Source: Ideonella sp. (lineage in GTDB: Bacteria; Pseudomonadota; Gammaproteobacteria; Burkholderiales; Burkholderiaceae_C). Taken from it: a stretch of 64,000 bases of DNA. The notes beneath the pieces were generated by a model. That model made no database searches. It had not been told where the DNA came from and saw only the letters and a program-made list of their open reading frames with translations. Location of the stretch: the NCBI RefSeq assembly GCF_044358605.1, contig NZ_JBIKNQ010000013.1:3032-67031 (forward strand), written 5' to 3'. The position numbers and the translations under genes are program-made. Positions 1-6,490 of this stretch are shown one piece after another (the first letter of the stretch is position 1; each line of letters starts with the position of its first letter).

Positions 1-905
1 TTCCACTTCCTACGGCCTAACGCCAGCACGTGGGCTCCGTGAGGGCTATTCAATTGCAGGGCGATGGGGGGCACGAAGGGCCCGGCCTCGCCAGTACCAG
101 CAACGCTGCGTCCGCTTGAAAAGGTCTTCTTGAGGTGCTGGCCGACATCGCCTTCGGCATCGGGGAAATAGCCTGTAGCGGCATAGCCATGATCGGACGT
201 GATGACCAGACGACGGCCCGTCGCAAGGCGCTCGACGAATGACCAGAAGTCATCGCTGGTGAGCTGATCGGCAGCGTCCTTGGTCAGCGTGTCCAGACCT
301 TGACCAGCGACGGCTGCATCGTGAATCTTGCTGTCTGGCCAGTGGTGCCAGAACACCCAATTGGGCGCACCATTGACCAAGCCTTGGCAGTCCTTCCAAG
401 GCATGTCGAGGCTTTCGGTTTGCGTGGGCTGCAAGCGATGCGCCAAGCCACCACCATTGTTCTGAAGCTGGCTGCGGCTGCCGAAGCCAAGAGCGCGAGC
501 AAACTCGTTCGTCTCGCCGGGGAGTTCTGAGGCGTTCGCCGAAACCTCGTGCAGCTTGAAGCCTCTTTCTTTGACACCTTGCAGCAGCCAAGGCAGCTCG
601 CGCAGTGAAAGGCCATCAAGGATCAGCACGGCCTTGGCACTGAAGGGCTCAGCCCACCAGCGCGCAAGCCGGTCAGATGTGCGCTCGACGGAGTCGCCGA
701 AGCTATTCCACAAGTCCCAGCCGCTGGCGGACAGGAAGTTGTCCAGCGCACCAATCTCGCGGTCCCGCTTGATGACTTCGCTCGGGGCGTTGCCAATGGC
801 CAAGGGCTTGGAGGAAATCTCCATCGCGGTCTTGACGATGACGCGCCAGGCTTCGGTGGCAGAGCCCTTGGTCAGTTCTTTCAGTACATCAGGATGGAGG
901 GCCAT
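1..905 (-). CDS. pglZ: PglZ-domain (alkaline-phosphatase superfamily) protein, 5' part only; the gene continues beyond the window start
   Basis: Own translation of the minus frame from ATG 905-903. It is absent from the ORF track because it has no stop in the window. Sequence: MALHPDVLKEL...AKAVLILDGLSLRELPWLL...RLVITSDHGYAATGYF, open for all 301 codons. The start overlaps the stop of the upstream ATPase gene (TGATG). Confidence 0.7.
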   Translation of the reverse strand, partial: MALHPDVLKELTKGSATEAWRVIVKTAMEISSKPLAIGNAPSEVIKRDREIGALDNFLSASGWDLWNSFGDSVERTSDRLARWWAEPFSAKAVLILDGLSLRELPWLLQGVKERGFKLHEVSANASELPGETNEFARALGFGSRSQLQNNGGGLAHRLQPTQTESLDMPWKDCQGLVNGAPNWVFWHHWPDSKIHDAAVAGQGLDTLTKDAADQLTSDDFWSFVERLATGRRLVITSDHGYAATGYFPDAEGDVGQHLKKTFSSGRSVAGTGEAGPFVPPIALQLNSPHGAHVLALGRRKW

Positions 906-3658
906 CACTTATCCTCCTTCTCAAGGTTCAGCTCGAACGTCATGCCATCGGGCAGCTTCTTCAGCAGTTCCTTGAGCTGCGCACCAGTGGCCGCAGTCAC
1001 CTTGATGGACACCTCTGCAACCTGTGTGGCGGGGCCAATACCCCAGCCTTCGAGCTTGCCGATAAGGTTCAGGGGCGAAGTCGGCGGGTTGTGCAGCGGG
1101 ATGCGTGGCTTGCTGCTAGCTGCTGTGCCGCCAAAGATGCCGCCACCGAATCCAGTCGGCGTACCGAGCTGTCCGCCTGGTGTGGGTTCGTTGACGCCCG
1201 AAGGGGGTGTGGGGGTCGTACCGCCACCGAAGAGGCCGCCGCCGGTGTTTGGAGTGCCTGGCGTGCCAGTGGGGGTCGTTGCTGTGGTGCCGCCAGTCGC
1301 GGGTACGGCAGAAGGTTCAAGCAGGAACACTTCATCGAGCTGGCGACCGGTGTAGTAGAGCTTGGGGCGCAGGCGGCGCCACGCGGTGTCCTCGTCTTCG
1401 CCGGGATTGGTCTGCAACCATTCCATTTGCCGCAGGTTGATAACGATCTTCCCGCGAGCGCACAGGCGAAGAATGCGCTCCTTCATCGAGGTTTCACCAA
1501 GCCAAGGGATGCAGTCCTGGCCCGCAGGTCGCGGCTCCTGCAACTCACGCAGCAGCTTGCCCACCGCTGCGTTCTCGGAGGCGGCTTCGAGCACAAGGTC
1601 TTCAAAGTCCTCCGGCACGAACAGGTCGTTAATCAGCGCCTCTTCAATGCCTTCGGGAATCTGCGCGCCTTGCTTCTTCAGGCTCTCCACGCTGAAGCGG
1701 CATTGCGCAGGGTCGGCAAAATTCCATCGCTGAAGGACAGCAAACCGGTCGAACCGCTTCTTGAGGTTGTCGCGCAAGAGGCCTTGATACTCGGTGTGCA
1801 GCTTCTTGTATTCAGGACCTTGGCCGCTCCACTCCTGCGCCTTCATTTCGGCACGCGCGAAGATCAGCAGGTCCCTGTCTTGGAATGCGTTGGTCGAACC
1901 TGCGCGCGGCATCAGGAAGCGGACGGTGTTACGGCGCTTTTGCAGATGATCCTTGAGCCACCGGCCGAGGCGCGCGTCGAGGTTTTCAGGCTCTTCCGGC
2001 AACACCAGGATGGGCAAGCGGTCGTCCCAGCGTTCGGGCTGTTCGGACTCGTCCAAGGAGGACCAAGGGTCCGTCTGCCAGGACTTGGGCAATGCAATGA
2101 CACGGAATGTCTTCGCCACCTCGTCTGTGCCGCCGATGACATAGCGAATCTGCTTGGCCAGTTGTGCCTGGTCAGAGCCATCGGCGAACAGCTTGTCATT
2201 GCGAGCACAGGCCATCAGCTTGGCGCGCGGGTTCTCCTCCTCGCGGAACACCAGCCGGTTGCCGTCCTGGTGGATGTTGAAGCTGTTCTCAACAATCGTC
2301 GCCAGCTCCACATTGAAGGCGTTGTCATCAACGGCCTTGCTGCGCGTGATGTCAACCTGTAAGGTCTGCGGCTCTGCACCGGCCAGGTTGCCGACGGCGA
2401 TGGAGCGCAGCCACAAGGCCCCGACGATCTCCTGCAAGTGGGGTGCCAAAGTGGCGTGCTCGCTGACCGCCTCGGTCACCGAGATGATGTTCTGCTGTGC
2501 CTTGGCCCGCAGTGTGCGGTGATGTTCGTTGGACACCGAATCCAGCAGCGCACCAATGCCCGAGGCGTCGTCATCCAACCGGAAGTCTGCGGCCGTGAGC
2601 ACCGGCGCAGCCTCGCCCCGACTCTTGTAGAGGTTAGCTAGGATGCGAATCATGTCGCGCCTGTCCTGCGCCTCCGTCGCGATCAGCACCTGTTCTTCGA
2701 GCAGGCGAAGCAAGTGCGGTGCGTAGGGCCATGCTTCAATGAAATCCTTGCGCTTGCGTTCCCGCTCTGCGGACGGCACATCCAGCAGCCGGAAGTACTC
2801 AGCCACATGCTTTCCGGCCAAGGCTTCAATGCTGGCCGGTGCAATCTGAAGGCGGTTGTCGAACAGGCGGTGCAGCAGCATGCGGCGCCGATCTTGCTGA
2901 ATGCGTTCGGCGTTTCCGCCCGCTTTGAAGTCGATGGCCACCGGGTTGACGCGGTGCACCTGTTGGTAGGCGTCGCTGCCGCCATTGCGCACGGAGATCA
3001 CCAGCACCAGCAGGTCCAGGCGCTCCTTGGCAATCTCCGACAAAATCTGGATGAAGTTGAAGGCCCAGGTCTTCCACGGGTACTGCTTGGTGTTGGTCAG
3101 GCCGTCGAACCACGTCTGGAACTCGTCCAGCAGCAGCATCGTGGGCGTGTGCTCAAGCAGTTCAAGGATCAGCTTGTCAGATGGGATGTCGGTCTTGGCC
3201 GCGCCCATACCTTCCCACTTGCCCTTGATATAGGTGCCATGCGGGTGGCGCTCAAGCAGCAGGTCCCATAGGAACTTGTACCGCTGGCGATGCAGGCTCT
3301 CGCCGATCACGTGCATGCCACTGCGCAGACCGATCTTGCCGATTAGCGGGTCACCCAACGTGCTCGCCCACGACTGAAGCCATGCGCCGGTTGACGCAGG
3401 ATCGTTCACGGCGTGATAGAGCGCCGCCATCAAGTGCGACTTACCCAGCCCGCGCTCACCGATGACCACGACCGGTCGGCCCTGGTCTGGTCCCACTGCC
3501 TCAATACCCTTCAGTAGGTCATGCGTGGGGTAGGTGATTTCCAAGAATGACTGGGCGGCGATCTGCGTCGCACCGGTATTCGTGTCGTTCGACAGTTCAA
3601 TCGCGGTTCCCTTGAGGCGCTTGCCCCGGAATTCCTCGCGTAGCGTTAGACCTAGCAC
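905..3658 (-). CDS. brxC: BrxC/PglY-like DUF499 P-loop ATPase (917 aa)
   Basis: GTG start at 3658 with GAGGAG 8 nt upstream. N-terminal FLEITYPTHDLL, Walker A VVVIGERGLGKSHLMAALYH and Walker B MLLLDEFQTW fit the DUF499/BrxC pattern. It is shorter than typical BrxC, which I recall as about 1200 aa. Confidence 0.75.
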   Translation of the reverse strand: MLGLTLREEFRGKRLKGTAIELSNDTNTGATQIAAQSFLEITYPTHDLLKGIEAVGPDQGRPVVVIGERGLGKSHLMAALYHAVNDPASTGAWLQSWASTLGDPLIGKIGLRSGMHVIGESLHRQRYKFLWDLLLERHPHGTYIKGKWEGMGAAKTDIPSDKLILELLEHTPTMLLLDEFQTWFDGLTNTKQYPWKTWAFNFIQILSEIAKERLDLLVLVISVRNGGSDAYQQVHRVNPVAIDFKAGGNAERIQQDRRRMLLHRLFDNRLQIAPASIEALAGKHVAEYFRLLDVPSAERERKRKDFIEAWPYAPHLLRLLEEQVLIATEAQDRRDMIRILANLYKSRGEAAPVLTAADFRLDDDASGIGALLDSVSNEHHRTLRAKAQQNIISVTEAVSEHATLAPHLQEIVGALWLRSIAVGNLAGAEPQTLQVDITRSKAVDDNAFNVELATIVENSFNIHQDGNRLVFREEENPRAKLMACARNDKLFADGSDQAQLAKQIRYVIGGTDEVAKTFRVIALPKSWQTDPWSSLDESEQPERWDDRLPILVLPEEPENLDARLGRWLKDHLQKRRNTVRFLMPRAGSTNAFQDRDLLIFARAEMKAQEWSGQGPEYKKLHTEYQGLLRDNLKKRFDRFAVLQRWNFADPAQCRFSVESLKKQGAQIPEGIEEALINDLFVPEDFEDLVLEAASENAAVGKLLRELQEPRPAGQDCIPWLGETSMKERILRLCARGKIVINLRQMEWLQTNPGEDEDTAWRRLRPKLYYTGRQLDEVFLLEPSAVPATGGTTATTPTGTPGTPNTGGGLFGGGTTPTPPSGVNEPTPGGQLGTPTGFGGGIFGGTAASSKPRIPLHNPPTSPLNLIGKLEGWGIGPATQVAEVSIKVTAATGAQLKELLKKLPDGMTFELNLEKEDK

Positions 3659-3814
3659 TTCGTCGACTCCTCAATTTGCGTGGCGCCACCTCAAAGAGCA
3701 GGAGGTGACGCCTTTCACTTGTATTCTTAGTCAAAGAAGCGACGATTTTTGTACGTCTGTGGTCTTTCTTGTACCTCATGACTGGACGCTTCCTGCGGCA
3801 TCTCTACGATGAAG

Positions 3815-4645
3815 CTACTCGAAATCTACGATGTCACTGCTTGGACTCGATCCGTCATCATCGGGGGGCATGTTTTGAGGTGTCGGCGGTGCGACTTTTG
3901 CGGCATCCACCTTTTGTTGAGTGGCTTCTTTCAAGAGCTTTGTTCGTTCCCGACAGTCGGCGGACGCATCTCTTGACTCCATCCGTTCGGCAATCTGCTT
4001 CTTCAGTTGTTGCAGCCGCTCCAATGCAGCCATGGGTCGGGTTGCATGAGCTTGGTTGGCGGGGCCTTCCAGTCTGGGCAGGTAAGAGCCGTCGGCAATC
4101 ATCTTCTGCTGATCTAGCTTCCCGGACTGAATTCCAGCCTCGATGGCTCGGATGCGCTGCTCAGGGTCCGTGCCCAACGATGGCATCCATTTGACAGGGA
4201 CTGACGCAGCGCGGGCAGCCGCAACTAAGGCTGCGTAGTATTCCTTAAACGCCATGCGGGCACCGACACGATCACCTGAATCCAAAATCGGACAGATCTC
4301 AGCCGATGCCGACGCTATCTCTTCCGTCCAAATGACGGTTTTGCGCTCATCCTGTGAATCGCACACTGTCGCCCATGCGGTGTCTGCACCTGGCCTTCCA
4401 TCCAGATTCCGTTTCTTTTCAACCTGGAAAGAGATGTCAGCAACCTTCGGCGGGAATCGGCCTCGGTCTGGGTCATTGATGTGGTCGGTGAGTGCCTCAG
4501 CAACTTCCTCAAGAGCCAGTTTCGAGGCACAAACTTTGAAGTACATCGACAGTTGAGCGCCTGTGAGCTGGTCCGCCTTCCCATATGTGGCGTACGTCTG
4601 TTGAAACATCTGGATGAACTTGTCCACATCTTCTTTACGCATCAT
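3815..4645 (-). CDS. hypothetical phage/satellite-type protein, possibly a replication accessory (helicase-loader-like); function uncertain
   Basis: ATG 4645 is preceded by GGAGG and overlaps the stop of the upstream gene (ATGATGCGTAA). No catalytic motif was recognised. The segment LALEEVAEALTDHINDPDRGRFPPKVADI weakly recalls phage helicase-loader N-domains. Confidence 0.55.
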   Translation of the reverse strand: MMRKEDVDKFIQMFQQTYATYGKADQLTGAQLSMYFKVCASKLALEEVAEALTDHINDPDRGRFPPKVADISFQVEKKRNLDGRPGADTAWATVCDSQDERKTVIWTEEIASASAEICPILDSGDRVGARMAFKEYYAALVAAARAASVPVKWMPSLGTDPEQRIRAIEAGIQSGKLDQQKMIADGSYLPRLEGPANQAHATRPMAALERLQQLKKQIAERMESRDASADCRERTKLLKEATQQKVDAAKVAPPTPQNMPPDDDGSSPSSDIVDFE

Positions 4646-5558
4646 GAACCTCCATGTCGGCACTCAGGCCCAACTGGCGCCGAACCTCGGCGGCCATGTC
4701 AATGACTTCACCAGCGCCACTCGTGTTCCGAAAGGGACGCTTTTCATTTCGTACCCAGTTCCGCCAAGTGGCTTGCCAGTCCAACTTGTTGGCGTCCGCG
4801 CCTGCTTTGGCGTGCCAGTAGTCGGCGAATGAAGCTGCCACTTGCTGGCAATGGGTGTGCGTCCAGCCGGGCTTCTCTAGGAGTGCCCAGTTCTGCCAGT
4901 CAGTCGGTAGCTGCCAATCTGTTGGGAGCCGGGTAGCGCGCTTGCCGGTTGCTATGGCATGGAGGATTGCAGTCGACGATTGCGACGGCCGAGATCGCGG
5001 CGCTGACTGCTCTTGGCCATGTTTTGGTTCATGTTTCTGATCCTGGTCCTGTTCTTGGCTTGGCTGGACCTCTTGAGGGGCATTCGAGGGGCTCGCAGGG
5101 GGCATATGAGCAGCTCTGCTATCCGAGGGCTGCCCCTTTGGAGAGGGAACGTAGGAGCTAGGCAGCCCCTCCTGCGACCTAATGCTGATCACCGCTTCCC
5201 GGCAGATGCCCGGCGGCACCTTCTCCACCTCGCGCTCAATCGCCCTGACTCGATGATCAGTTGGCTGGAGCTTTTGTGAGCAAAGCTCTCTCAGGATGCC
5301 GGGAACGAAGATGAGCGTGCCTTGACGGTAAAGCCATCGCTTTCCCTCCAGAATTCGAAGCGCCTCCTCCACCTTTTGAGTGGGCAGTCCTGTATCCGCA
5401 GCCATGTAAGCAACCGGGCAATGCGCTATGCCAATGAGCGAAGCATGTGGGCAGACCTTCAGGTAGAGGGCCACCAGCACGACATGAATGCCGTGATCAC
5501 TCAGCTCATTGACCTGCTCGGTCCAGAAGGTCGACTCAACGACGCCAAAGTTGCGCAT
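4635..5558 (-). CDS. replication-initiator-like protein with a C-terminal DnaT-type DNA-binding motif
   Basis: ATG 5558 has an AAGGAGG SD. The C-terminus RLPTDWQLPTDWQNWA...FADYWHAKAG...KLDWQATWRNWVRN matches the motif common in phage/satellite replication proteins. There is a long Ser/Pro/Gln-rich linker in the middle. Confidence 0.6.
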   Translation of the reverse strand: MRNFGVVESTFWTEQVNELSDHGIHVVLVALYLKVCPHASLIGIAHCPVAYMAADTGLPTQKVEEALRILEGKRWLYRQGTLIFVPGILRELCSQKLQPTDHRVRAIEREVEKVPPGICREAVISIRSQEGLPSSYVPSPKGQPSDSRAAHMPPASPSNAPQEVQPSQEQDQDQKHEPKHGQEQSAPRSRPSQSSTAILHAIATGKRATRLPTDWQLPTDWQNWALLEKPGWTHTHCQQVAASFADYWHAKAGADANKLDWQATWRNWVRNEKRPFRNTSGAGEVIDMAAEVRRQLGLSADMEVHDA

Positions 5559-5710: not shown

Positions 5711-5983
5711 TCATTCAGCGCCAGCATGTTCAGCAGCCATTTGGGCGAGTGCACCGCGCTTTGCCGCCATGCGGCGCACCAGGTCCGCGATCTGCTCATC
5801 ACTCCAGCCAGCAACCCGGGCCCTGGCCACGGCAAGCAGTTCGTCAGAGGGATAACCGATGCTTCGTGCACTGATCTGCACCGGCAACGGGACGAGTTGC
5901 TTTTTGCGCCACTCAAAGAAGCGGCCATGGCTCACGGCCAGTACCTTACGGGCGGCGGGTGCCTTCAAGATTTCAAACGACAT
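5711..5983 (-). CDS. AlpA/excisionase-family small HTH DNA-binding protein
   Basis: 90-aa ORF with ATG 5983 and a GGAGCA SD. It is a small basic HTH-like protein at the tRNA-proximal end of the island. Confidence 0.5.
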   Translation of the reverse strand: MSFEILKAPAARKVLAVSHGRFFEWRKKQLVPLPVQISARSIGYPSDELLAVARARVAGWSDEQIADLVRRMAAKRGALAQMAAEHAGAE

Positions 5984-6345: not shown

Positions 6346-6372
6346 TGGGAATTTCGGAGCCCAGAAAGACTT

Positions 6373-6404
6373 AAGGGTTAGCACGCGCTAACGTGCTAAC
6401 CCTT
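6373..6404 (-). terminator. perfect 13-bp stem / 6-nt loop hairpin 10 nt downstream of tRNA-Pro
   Basis: AAGGGTTAGCACG-cgctaa-CGTGCTAACCCTT. On the minus strand it is followed by AAGTCTTTCTGG, which is only moderately U-rich. Confidence 0.45.
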
Positions 6405-6413
6405 GTCTTTCAT

Positions 6414-6490
6414 TGGTCGGGGTGGCGGGATTCGAACTCGCGACCCCTTGCACCCCATGCAAGTGCGCTACCAGGCTGCGCTACACCCCG
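6414..6490 (-). tRNA. tRNA-Pro (anticodon GGG)
   Basis: 77-nt cloverleaf folded by hand. Acceptor stem CGGGGTG/CACCCCG plus ACCA. Anticodon loop AT-GGG-GT, with the anticodon at 6456-6454. T-loop TTCGAAT. There is one A:C mismatch in the T stem (6438/6428). Confidence 0.93.

Follow-up and report, generated by a model that had tools for sequence, protein, structure and literature searches.

The window analysed here, a stretch of 64,000 nucleotides from an Ideonella sp. contig, carries at its left edge two overlapping genes, one for a DUF499-type ATPase and the other for a putative PglZ-domain phosphodiesterase, on an island beside a tRNA-Pro gene. The features of this region are the following:

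1..905, minus strand: standalone PglZ-domain (NPP-fold) putative phosphodiesterase, cut by the window edge (profile, AlphaFold2, Foldseek)
903..907, minus strand: TGATG stop/start overlap of 1 nt, from the ATPase to the PglZ gene (sequence, locus survey)
905..3658, minus strand: DUF499-type ORC/Cdc6-like AAA+ ATPase of 917 aa, BrxC-like (translation, Pfam, PHROG)
3659..3670, minus strand: GGAG ribosome-binding site; homology with related systems ends here on the upstream side (blastn, sequence)
3815..5558, minus strand: two island genes, of 282 aa and 307 aa, with similarity to phage replication-initiation, primosomal and helicase-loader proteins (PHROGs)
6372-6405: hairpin with a 14-bp stem, just downstream of the tRNA-Pro gene
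6414..6490, minus strand: tRNA-Pro(GGG) (ARAGORN)

The ATPase gene starts at a GTG codon, with the GGAG ribosome-binding site 5' of it, and its product shows the motif TYPT at residues 42-45, the stretch GERGLGKSHLMAALYH at residues 67-82, including the Walker A motif (GERGLGKS, 67-74), and a Walker B motif (LLLDEF, 175-180), ending in a Gly/Pro/Thr-rich linker (~786-850) and a small C-terminal domain. When compared with Pfam, the window protein reaches 31.3 bits for AAA_16 and 19.7 bits for DUF499 (cut-off 23 bits), both slightly below the curated cut-offs; across the family, DUF499 is matched by 18 of the 18 members searched (best E=6e-11). The protein also matches PHROG 38717 (E=4e-15), and its orthologues carry the PGAP label 'DUF499 domain-containing protein'. 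An earlier, sequence-only reading of this DNA had called the ATPase DUF499-type, and the family-wide Pfam matches and the Walker motifs bear this out, pointing to a DUF499 family of ORC/Cdc6-type AAA+ ATPases. Since profile searches of the ATPase against the PDB gave no match to BrxC, its likeness to that protein rests on the DUF499 domain and on the literature.

The TGA stop of the ATPase gene (907-905) and the ATG of the PglZ gene (905-903) have one base in common. Translational coupling through this TGATG had already been proposed, and the arrangement turns out to be conserved: among 80 species-representative loci that were surveyed, the ATPase adjoins PglZ in every one, and the overlap is kept in 75, measuring 1 nt in 73 of them and 4 nt in two. 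An overlap of 4 nt is also the form found in one archaeal and one planctomycete locus. Because it is kept across the surveyed loci, the overlap is not a product of chance.

The PglZ gene extends over 301 codons within the window before running off the left edge, the full protein (P0001) having 329 aa. It displays the motifs LILDGLSLRE (94-103) and ITSDHGY (235-241), and its catalytic core begins at the strand formed by residues 91-96, with D97. The metal site and nucleophile are predicted to comprise D97, T132, D191/H195, D238/H239 and H312, the last of which lies beyond the window, and all of these residues are invariant or near-invariant down to 30% identity.

The HMMs of Pfam, PADLOC and NCBIfam leave this small protein unrecognised. 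The Pfam PglZ model (PF08665) gives no match to the window fragment, to full-length P0001 or to 49 close homologues, and matches weakly 10 of 39 diverse family members (best E=3.9e-4); precomputed PF08665 matches are carried by many divergent members of the family. PDB searches with the single sequence and with a profile of close homologues yielded only Octarellin, a designed protein, which was rejected as spurious. The profile of the wider family (A3), when run against the PDB, found a BREX PglZ (9nv3_C, E=1.5e-7) and PorX (~7e-3). As for the structure, a first AlphaFold2 model, from an alignment of 49 sequences sharing at least 78% identity, had a pLDDT of 61 and non-significant matches to PorX (E 0.012-0.25), and a good model (pLDDT 87.3, pTM 0.90) came from a more diverse alignment. 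The top 17 Foldseek matches of the latter are to PorX (5e-11 to 2e-8, TM up to 0.62), followed by a BREX PglZ (9zn5_B, 1.4e-6) and then by NPP enzymes.

Profile and modelled fold agree in placing the 329-aa protein firmly among PglZ-like proteins, and it is a standalone PglZ with conserved metal-binding residues and no fused domains. This is what the sequence-only reading had proposed in assigning the protein to the PglZ/alkaline-phosphatase superfamily, with a core near residue 90. It had also taken a failure of HMMs to place the two proteins in their families as a sign against its proposal; the stock HMMs do miss the PglZ protein, but the profile and fold comparisons place it all the same. 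The PglZ domain of PorX, the best structural match, is a phosphodiesterase that likewise has the NPP fold, a two-metal site and Thr as its nucleophile. However, PorX has a receiver domain and a signalling role, whereas the PglZ of the type found in the window stands alone in a defence operon.

The sequence-only reading had proposed that the pair could be a BREX-like module akin to type 4, either reduced to a minimum or novel, which would amount to an autonomous two-gene system, made of a short BrxC and a short PglZ, defending alone. Its translational coupling is tight and conserved, both proteins are far shorter than BREX BrxC and PglZ, and in BREX a core complex is made by BrxC, BrxB and PglZ. 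Nevertheless, the pair was never found without further genes in any of the 52 surveyed loci with at least 9 kb of downstream sequence: in all of these, genes for a DUF1156 methyltransferase, a 166-aa protein and an SNF2 helicase come after it. At least the methyltransferase is present in 74 of the 80 loci, the other six all stopping at a contig edge, and the same gene order was found in one archaeon and one planctomycete. The closest relatives of the window copy are, moreover, complete systems, and we regard defence by the two genes alone as very improbable. The proposal of a new minimal module is not supported; the pair is very probably the start of an anti-phage system of five genes, presumably based on methylation, that had been catalogued in 2026.

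The relatives' methyltransferase matches N6_N4_Mtase and, weakly, DUF1156 in Pfam, and HmaB and PglXI in PADLOC. Their helicase, of ~925 aa, matches SNF2-rel_dom and Helicase_C in Pfam, and BrxHI/HII (3e-102) and HmaA in PADLOC, and no nuclease domain was matched in it at sequence level by either collection. The 166-aa protein has no Pfam or PADLOC match, and neither the scanned core genes of the relatives nor the window proteins matched DUF3780 or an HKD nuclease. Four loci (L009, L010, L011 and L013) encode proteins with 95-97% amino-acid identity to those of the window, and the first two of them show 94.7% nucleotide identity over window 1..3670. All four share the order HTH_17, ATPase, PglZ, IetA, IetS; after IetS, L009, L010 and L013 continue with the methyltransferase, the 166-aa gene and the helicase, and L011 ends inside the methyltransferase. 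The sequence-only reading had rightly placed the remainder of the system beyond the window edge, which cuts the PglZ gene; the further genes are present in the relatives. The same reading had held that downstream genes completing a catalogued type would speak against novelty, and this is the case at least in these 95-97% identical relatives; for the genome under study, we infer the distal methyltransferase, 166-aa and helicase genes from the sequences of the relatives.

Rakesh and Krishnan (Nucleic Acids Res 2026, PMC12839542) list this five-gene architecture under the name of Type-3 DUF499-centred BREX-related (BR) system. Judged by sequence, our locus matches the published description in its DUF499 AAA+ ATPase and in its standalone PglZ of ~320-330 aa with an apparently intact metal site. 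The relatives add an N6-methyltransferase of the DUF1156 type, a small gene of its own that may encode the iSTAND protein, and an SNF2 helicase, BrxHII-like and apparently with no nuclease, and the family shows a wide bacterial and archaeal spread. Different from the description are that the window holds the first two genes only, that this lineage embeds IetA/IetS, and that this strain has an IetS cut by an IS and lacks the upstream HTH_17 gene. Taken together, the ATPase and PglZ genes are in all likelihood the promoter-proximal part of a Type-3 DUF499-centred BR operon on a tRNA-Pro island.

Membership in a canonical BREX type (1-6, for example type 4) or in another BR type (Hma/Type-1, MANTIS/Gao_RL/Type-2) would account for the DUF499/BrxC-like ATPase, for the PglZ, and for the BrxHI/HII, HmaA, HmaB and PglXI matches of the relatives' helicase and methyltransferase. 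Canonical BREX indeed combines an ORC/Cdc6-type AAA+ ATPase, a PglZ phosphodiesterase and a self-marking methyltransferase, and the modelled fold of the window PglZ matches that of the Acinetobacter BREX PglZ. Contrary to BREX, though, the ATPase has 917 aa against ~1200 and no sequence-level match to solved BrxC, the PglZ has 329 aa against the 887 of a solved BREX PglZ and is devoid of its N-terminal and C-terminal accessory domains, and the methyltransferase in relatives is DUF1156/PglXI-like and not PglX. That both proteins are shorter than their canonical counterparts was among the original observations and holds. None of the PADLOC models for BrxC, PglZ, BrxL, BrxA, BrxB and BrxP matched the window proteins or P0001, and no brxL, brxA, brxB or brxP was found in the relatives scanned, where the helicase and the methyltransferase are the sole BREX matches. 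BREX type 4 (brxP-brxC-pglZ-brxL) does not fit, with phage-like replication genes upstream and, in relatives, the methyltransferase, 166-aa and helicase genes downstream.

MANTIS/Gao_RL and Hma share with our system the DUF499 ATPase, the DUF1156 methyltransferase and an SNF2-type helicase, but in them a nuclease (PD-(D/E)xK or HKD) is fused to the helicase, and both Types 1 and 2 are described as lacking PglZ (PMC12839542). Hma in particular does not fit, given that HmaC matches the window ATPase with E=0.0086 over 65 residues only and that a PglZ is present. With no DUF3780 or HKD match either, assignment to canonical BREX or to one of these other BR types appears extremely improbable. Identity with MADS was also dropped, the MADS preprint containing neither PglZ nor DUF499.

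Upstream of the ATPase, the 282-aa and 307-aa genes match phrog_6028 (2.4e-40), phrog_3992 (4.9e-18) and phrog_1408 (2.1e-14), and are common to none of 91 related loci; these replication-type genes are context, outside the defence system. Beyond the tRNA-Pro gene lie the chromosomal genes merR, an IHF/HU-like gene, pheT and pheS (Pfam), and tRNA-Pro(GGG) is the probable integration site of the island; one relative (L054) has a 57-nt 3' fragment of tRNA-Pro 1.7 kb past its helicase. The original reading had placed the pair on a tRNA-Pro island, preceded by replication genes of phage type, and the ARAGORN and PHROG results agree with it. Homology to L009, L010 and L006 (blastn) begins at window position 3670, 12 bp before the ATPase start codon. 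An HTH_17 regulator gene is located upstream in close relatives, and tblastn detects it in 44 of the 80 surveyed loci; blastn against close relatives showed it to be absent upstream of the window copy. The DNA upstream of the ATPase showed no sigma-70-like promoter.

Past the window edge, the sequence could be followed in locus L001, which is 100% identical to the window and continues into IetA and IetS, colinear with L009 up to an IS junction. PADLOC recognises in L009 both IetA (9e-146) and IetS (E=0 over 874 aa). In our strain, as represented by L001, IetA is intact and IetS ends at 601 aa, where the terminal repeat of an IS1595-family element begins, the gene being cut by this element at ~codon 599. 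IetA/IetS (Gao_Iet) is a known defence pair, embedded in this lineage between PglZ and the methyltransferase, at a junction that acts as a cargo slot.

These findings could be taken as the signs of a decayed remnant, in which the IS1595-family insertion, or a deletion mediated by the IS, removed or silenced the distal genes and left an orphan ATPase-PglZ(-IetA) stub, non-functional or being lost. L001 and the NCBI/JGI contig both end where IetS is truncated, as exact-protein look-ups showed, the HTH_17 regulator is gone and the upstream flank replaced. Furthermore, a search with a relative's iSTAND protein revealed no copy on the window's own 83,457-bp contig, in a collection whose cluster representatives hide members. 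However, repeated elements are expected to break assemblies, so that a contig ending at an IS is an artefact and no sign of deletion, and both window ORFs are intact and share 97% identity with their counterparts in complete systems, which leaves this explanation unlikely. The IetS/IS junction sequence was not found in the genome contig collection, and a metagenome scan gave one further copy of the IS and nothing else. Had the genes for the distal methyltransferase and helicase been deleted or silenced, an ATPase-PglZ(-IetA) trio would be left, which would imply either a methylation-independent effector pair or that the ATPase and PglZ are tolerated with no self-marking. It is less probable still, and quite doubtful, that the operon has been remodelled in this strain to the point of no longer being Type-3 BR-like, through the loss of HTH_17, its capture on the tRNA-Pro island after phage-type replication genes and the splitting of IetS by the IS.

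For a Type-3 BR operon, the proposed core order is the ATPase, the standalone PglZ, a DUF1156 N6-adenine methyltransferase, the 166-aa putative inactive-STAND (BrxB-like) protein and an SNF2/BrxHII-like helicase with no nuclease. No experiments on a Type-3 BR system came up in our literature search, and each step of the mechanism is accordingly drawn by analogy. The methyltransferase would mark a short motif in the host DNA. The AAA+ ATPase would bind DNA, load and activate the methyltransferase, and serve as the scaffold on which PglZ and the iSTAND protein join it in a complex, for which precedents as loader and scaffold are MtsA in the Type-2 BR system MANTIS and BrxC with BrxB:PglZ in BREX. 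MANTIS is the sole biochemical model; in it the ATPase brings about hemimethylation by loading the methyltransferase, and restriction needs both ATPases. On unmodified invading DNA the helicase would translocate, and PglZ, predicted to be an NPP-type phosphodiesterase that uses two metals and a Thr nucleophile, may be the nuclease effector, in place of the nuclease that BR types 1 and 2 carry as a domain of their helicase. The stop/start overlap would ensure the co-translation of ATPase and PglZ.

The main value of these results would lie in correct annotation: the 329-aa protein, labelled 'hypothetical' by PGAP and missed by PADLOC-DB 2.0 and by the Pfam and NCBIfam HMMs, is predicted to be a full NPP-fold PglZ with its catalytic set intact. 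Such a compact standalone PglZ, apparently replacing the nuclease of related systems, would offer a handy test of the role of PglZ in BREX-like immunity. Type-3 BR systems are widespread: ~2,570 clusters at 90% identity match the 329-aa PglZ at E<=0.001, and the system was found in 43 plasmid records, 28 of them from Klebsiella. Examples of complete orthologues are the MCA2685 locus of Methylococcus capsulatus Bath and the Klebsiella IncR plasmid pKP0155-2. Embedded defence genes are well documented in Hma, and the cargo between PglZ and the methyltransferase carries the published 'guilt by embedding' idea over to Type-3 BR, whose describing paper mentions neither IetAS nor SIR2-HerA cargo in its main text (PMC12839542). 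The contents seen at this junction comprise IetAS, SIR2-HerA, Ppl, a toxin-antitoxin pair and unannotated genes of 306-319 aa.

Both genes of the pair, the motifs quoted for them and their TGATG overlap were confirmed by ORF reading and translation, as the sequence-only reading had described them:

3658 to 905, minus strand: ATPase gene, 917 codons, with a GTG start at 3658 and a TGA stop at 907-905 (ORF reading)
Running off the left edge, minus strand: PglZ gene, 301 codons in the window (ORF reading)

The ATPase start codon has GGAG 8-11 nt 5' of the GTG, and the protein carries TYPT at residues 42-45, the Walker A stretch GERGLGKSH...ALYH at residues 67-82 and the Walker B motif LLLDEF at residues 175-180, its C-terminal part being formed by a Gly/Pro/Thr-rich linker followed by a small domain. 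At the TGATG junction, the A of the ATPase stop codon is also the A of the PglZ ATG. The full-length PglZ protein (P0001, 100% identical to the window fragment) has 329 aa, with LILDGLSLRE at 94-103 and ITSDHGY at 235-241. The translational coupling proposed for the pair is borne out by its relatives, the stop/start overlap being conserved in 75 of 80 loci. A further ORF of 423 codons, at 1091-2362 on the plus strand, lies opposite the ATPase gene; long frames of this sort are usual on the antisense strand of GC-rich DNA (here about 61% GC), and this one is probably no real gene.

The assignment of the ATPase to the DUF499 type proved right. This domain is matched by 18/18 orthologues scanned (best E 6e-11), the window copy itself lying just below the Pfam cut-offs for both DUF499 (19.7 vs 23) and AAA_16 (31.3 vs 32.6), and in PGAP annotation the orthologues are called 'DUF499 domain-containing protein'. 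Comparison of ATPase family profiles with solved structures gave no BrxC match by sequence, so that 'DUF499' is the tested designation and 'BrxC-like' one based on the literature.

The small protein, labelled 'hypothetical' by PGAP, matches nothing in the stock libraries of Pfam, PADLOC and NCBIfam, and none of 49 close homologues matched Pfam. Its family is compact: among 1.84 billion representative proteins, scanned in full, 368 representatives reached E<=0.001, full-length members measure about 320-335 aa, and the 150 listed include no larger fusion. A profile of 39 members, with identity down to 30%, retrieves only PglZ proteins from the PDB, namely BREX PglZ (9nv3_C, E=1.5e-7, with the SDHG and HGG motifs aligned) and PorX (E about 7e-3). 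The Pfam PglZ model matches 10 of these 39 diverse members, and also many of a divergent subfamily. A first AlphaFold model, built on a shallow alignment, was poor (pLDDT 61), with suggestive, non-significant matches; a second one, built on 76 sequences from both subfamilies, reached pLDDT 87.3 and pTM 0.90. With the latter, Foldseek against the PDB places PorX at ranks 1-17 (E 5e-11 to 2e-8, TM up to 0.62) and Acinetobacter BREX PglZ (9zn5_B, E 1.4e-6) at rank 18, followed by NPP enzymes, autotaxin and phosphonoacetate hydrolase. Profile and fold thus uphold the PglZ family claim, and the core begins at the strand 91-96 of the model, near residue 90 as had been noted. Both alignments keep residues D97, D191 and D238 without exception, and T132, H195, H239 and H312 with few exceptions or none. 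This pattern of D, 35 residues, T, followed by DxxxH, DH and H, is what we take to be the two-metal site and Thr nucleophile of NPP-type enzymes, and its conservation makes the protein look catalytically competent.

What was not borne out is the idea of a reduced, minimal or novel module. We collected 91 related loci by exact-protein look-ups and by scanning a single genome for each species, located reference proteins in every locus, and based the counts on the 80 species representatives. The ATPase adjoins PglZ in 80/80 loci, and wherever at least 9 kb downstream is present (52/52 loci) the pair is followed, in this order, by the gene of a methyltransferase (about 1070-1085 aa), the 166-aa gene and the gene of an SNF2 helicase (about 925 aa). 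The methyltransferase is missing from six loci, each of them cut off by a contig edge. Where present, it matches Pfam N6_N4_Mtase, weakly DUF1156, and PADLOC HmaB/PglXI, and the helicase PADLOC BrxHI/HII (3e-102) and also HmaA. The five-gene order recurs in the archaeon Methanococcoides, in a planctomycete and on conjugative plasmids; among the latter are 28 Klebsiella records with a PglZ homologue (73% identical in those listed). This homologue is again 'hypothetical' in PGAP. Two IS26 copies flank a complete operon with an embedded SIR2-HerA on the clinical Klebsiella pneumoniae IncR plasmid pKP0155-2 (NZ_CP114377.1:1152-17548).

MADS, at first considered as a match to this architecture, proved wrong. 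Judged by its published description, the matching system is the Type-3 DUF499-centred BREX-related (BR) system, which combines a DUF499 ATPase with a PglXI-like methyltransferase whose N-terminus is DUF1156, a PglZ that is standalone, active and present in nearly all systems, an inactive-STAND protein encoded separately in 82% of systems, and a BrxHII-like helicase from which the nuclease has been lost, and which spans 569 taxa, archaea included (Rakesh & Krishnan, NAR 2026, PMC12839542). In Type-3, PglZ is proposed to take the place of the nucleases found in Type-1 (Hma) and in Type-2 (Gao_RL, since renamed MANTIS) (PMC12839542). The DUF499 ATPase of MANTIS acts as loader of the methyltransferase for hemimethylation, and restriction needs both ATPases; in BREX, BrxC, BrxB and PglZ form a core complex, and DNA nicking by PglZ has been reported. 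We found no experiments on Type-3 BR in the literature: the locus is of a catalogued kind, experimentally untouched. Its value lies in the correct name for a protein that the Pfam, PADLOC-DB 2.0 and NCBIfam HMMs overlook and that is 'hypothetical' in PGAP, in a compact standalone PglZ through which PglZ function could be approached experimentally, and in the cargo slot at the PglZ/methyltransferase junction.

The statement that the rest of the system lies beyond the window proved right. A Logan contig (L001) equals the window at 100% over 3107 bases and continues into IetA and IetS, left of coordinate 1. Relatives whose proteins are 95-97% identical (L009, L010, L011 and L013) have the order HTH_17, ATPase, PglZ, IetA (339 aa), IetS (874 aa), L009 and L010 showing 94.7% nucleotide identity over window 1..3670, and the embedded pair is the known Gao_Iet system (PADLOC IetA 9e-146, IetS E=0). 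L009, L010 and L013 run on through the methyltransferase, 166-aa and helicase genes, L011 ending in the methyltransferase; the three genes presumably follow in this genome as well. L001 and L009 are colinear over 6041 bases, after which L001 diverges at about IetS codon 599, where L001:6042-6069 equals (28/28 nt) the terminal inverted repeat of an IS1595-family element, of which a copy lies at L012:169-1215 (transposase, DDE_Tnp_IS1595 at 2e-27). The NCBI/JGI contig ends 87 bp beyond this junction. Together, these observations indicate that IetS is IS-disrupted in this strain, short-read assemblies breaking at the IS.

The PglZ/methyltransferase junction holds an insert in 31/74 surveyed loci having both genes.

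Cargo at the PglZ/methyltransferase junction (31 inserts plus two IetAS or SIR2-type loci ending before the methyltransferase)
IetAS: 11 loci
SIR2-HerA: 8 loci
Ppl: 3 loci
PDC-M24B candidate
Cassette including a PemK-family toxin
306-319 aa proteins without Pfam or PADLOC matches
Junction examples (L013-L092 range): L016:11008-11928, L064:11000-11923, L086:11019-11948, L083:11026-11985

The unannotated 306-319 aa proteins are 'guilt-by-embedding' defence candidates. Elsewhere, 8 loci have HEC-01 between 166-aa gene and helicase, and 6 have PD-T7-3 after the helicase. That Hma, BREX and type I restriction-modification systems have defence genes embedded in their loci is already published, and the junction cargo extends this known pattern and is no discovery.

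On the upstream side, homology to relatives begins 12 bp 5' of the ATPase start. Close relatives carry an HTH_17 (mad1-like) regulator directly upstream of the ATPase (detected by tblastn in 44/80 surveyed loci), which is absent here; in its place are a 156-bp spacer (3659-3814), with an imperfect inverted repeat (GGCGTCACCTC / GAGGTGGCGCC) and no sigma-70-like promoter found, and two phage-replication-like genes. Beyond these lie a tRNA-Pro and then chromosomal merR, an IHF/HU-like gene, pheT and pheS, in agreement with the proposed island at tRNA-Pro. Between the tRNA and the replication-like genes, a 90-aa ORF at 5711-5983 on the minus strand, a called gene in the NCBI contig, matches neither Pfam nor PHROG and shows no more than weak similarity (28% identity) in the related locus L054. 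L054, a locus without a complete tRNA, carries 1.7 kb past its helicase a 57-nt copy of the tRNA-Pro 3' part (L054:19774-19830, 94.7% identical to window 6409-6464); this fragment has the look of an attachment-site repeat at the far end of a related island, which suggests that related islands share the attachment site. Where chromosome and island meet, tRNA-Pro is directly followed by a perfect hairpin with a 14-bp stem (6372-6405), possibly the terminator of the tRNA or a piece of the attachment site.
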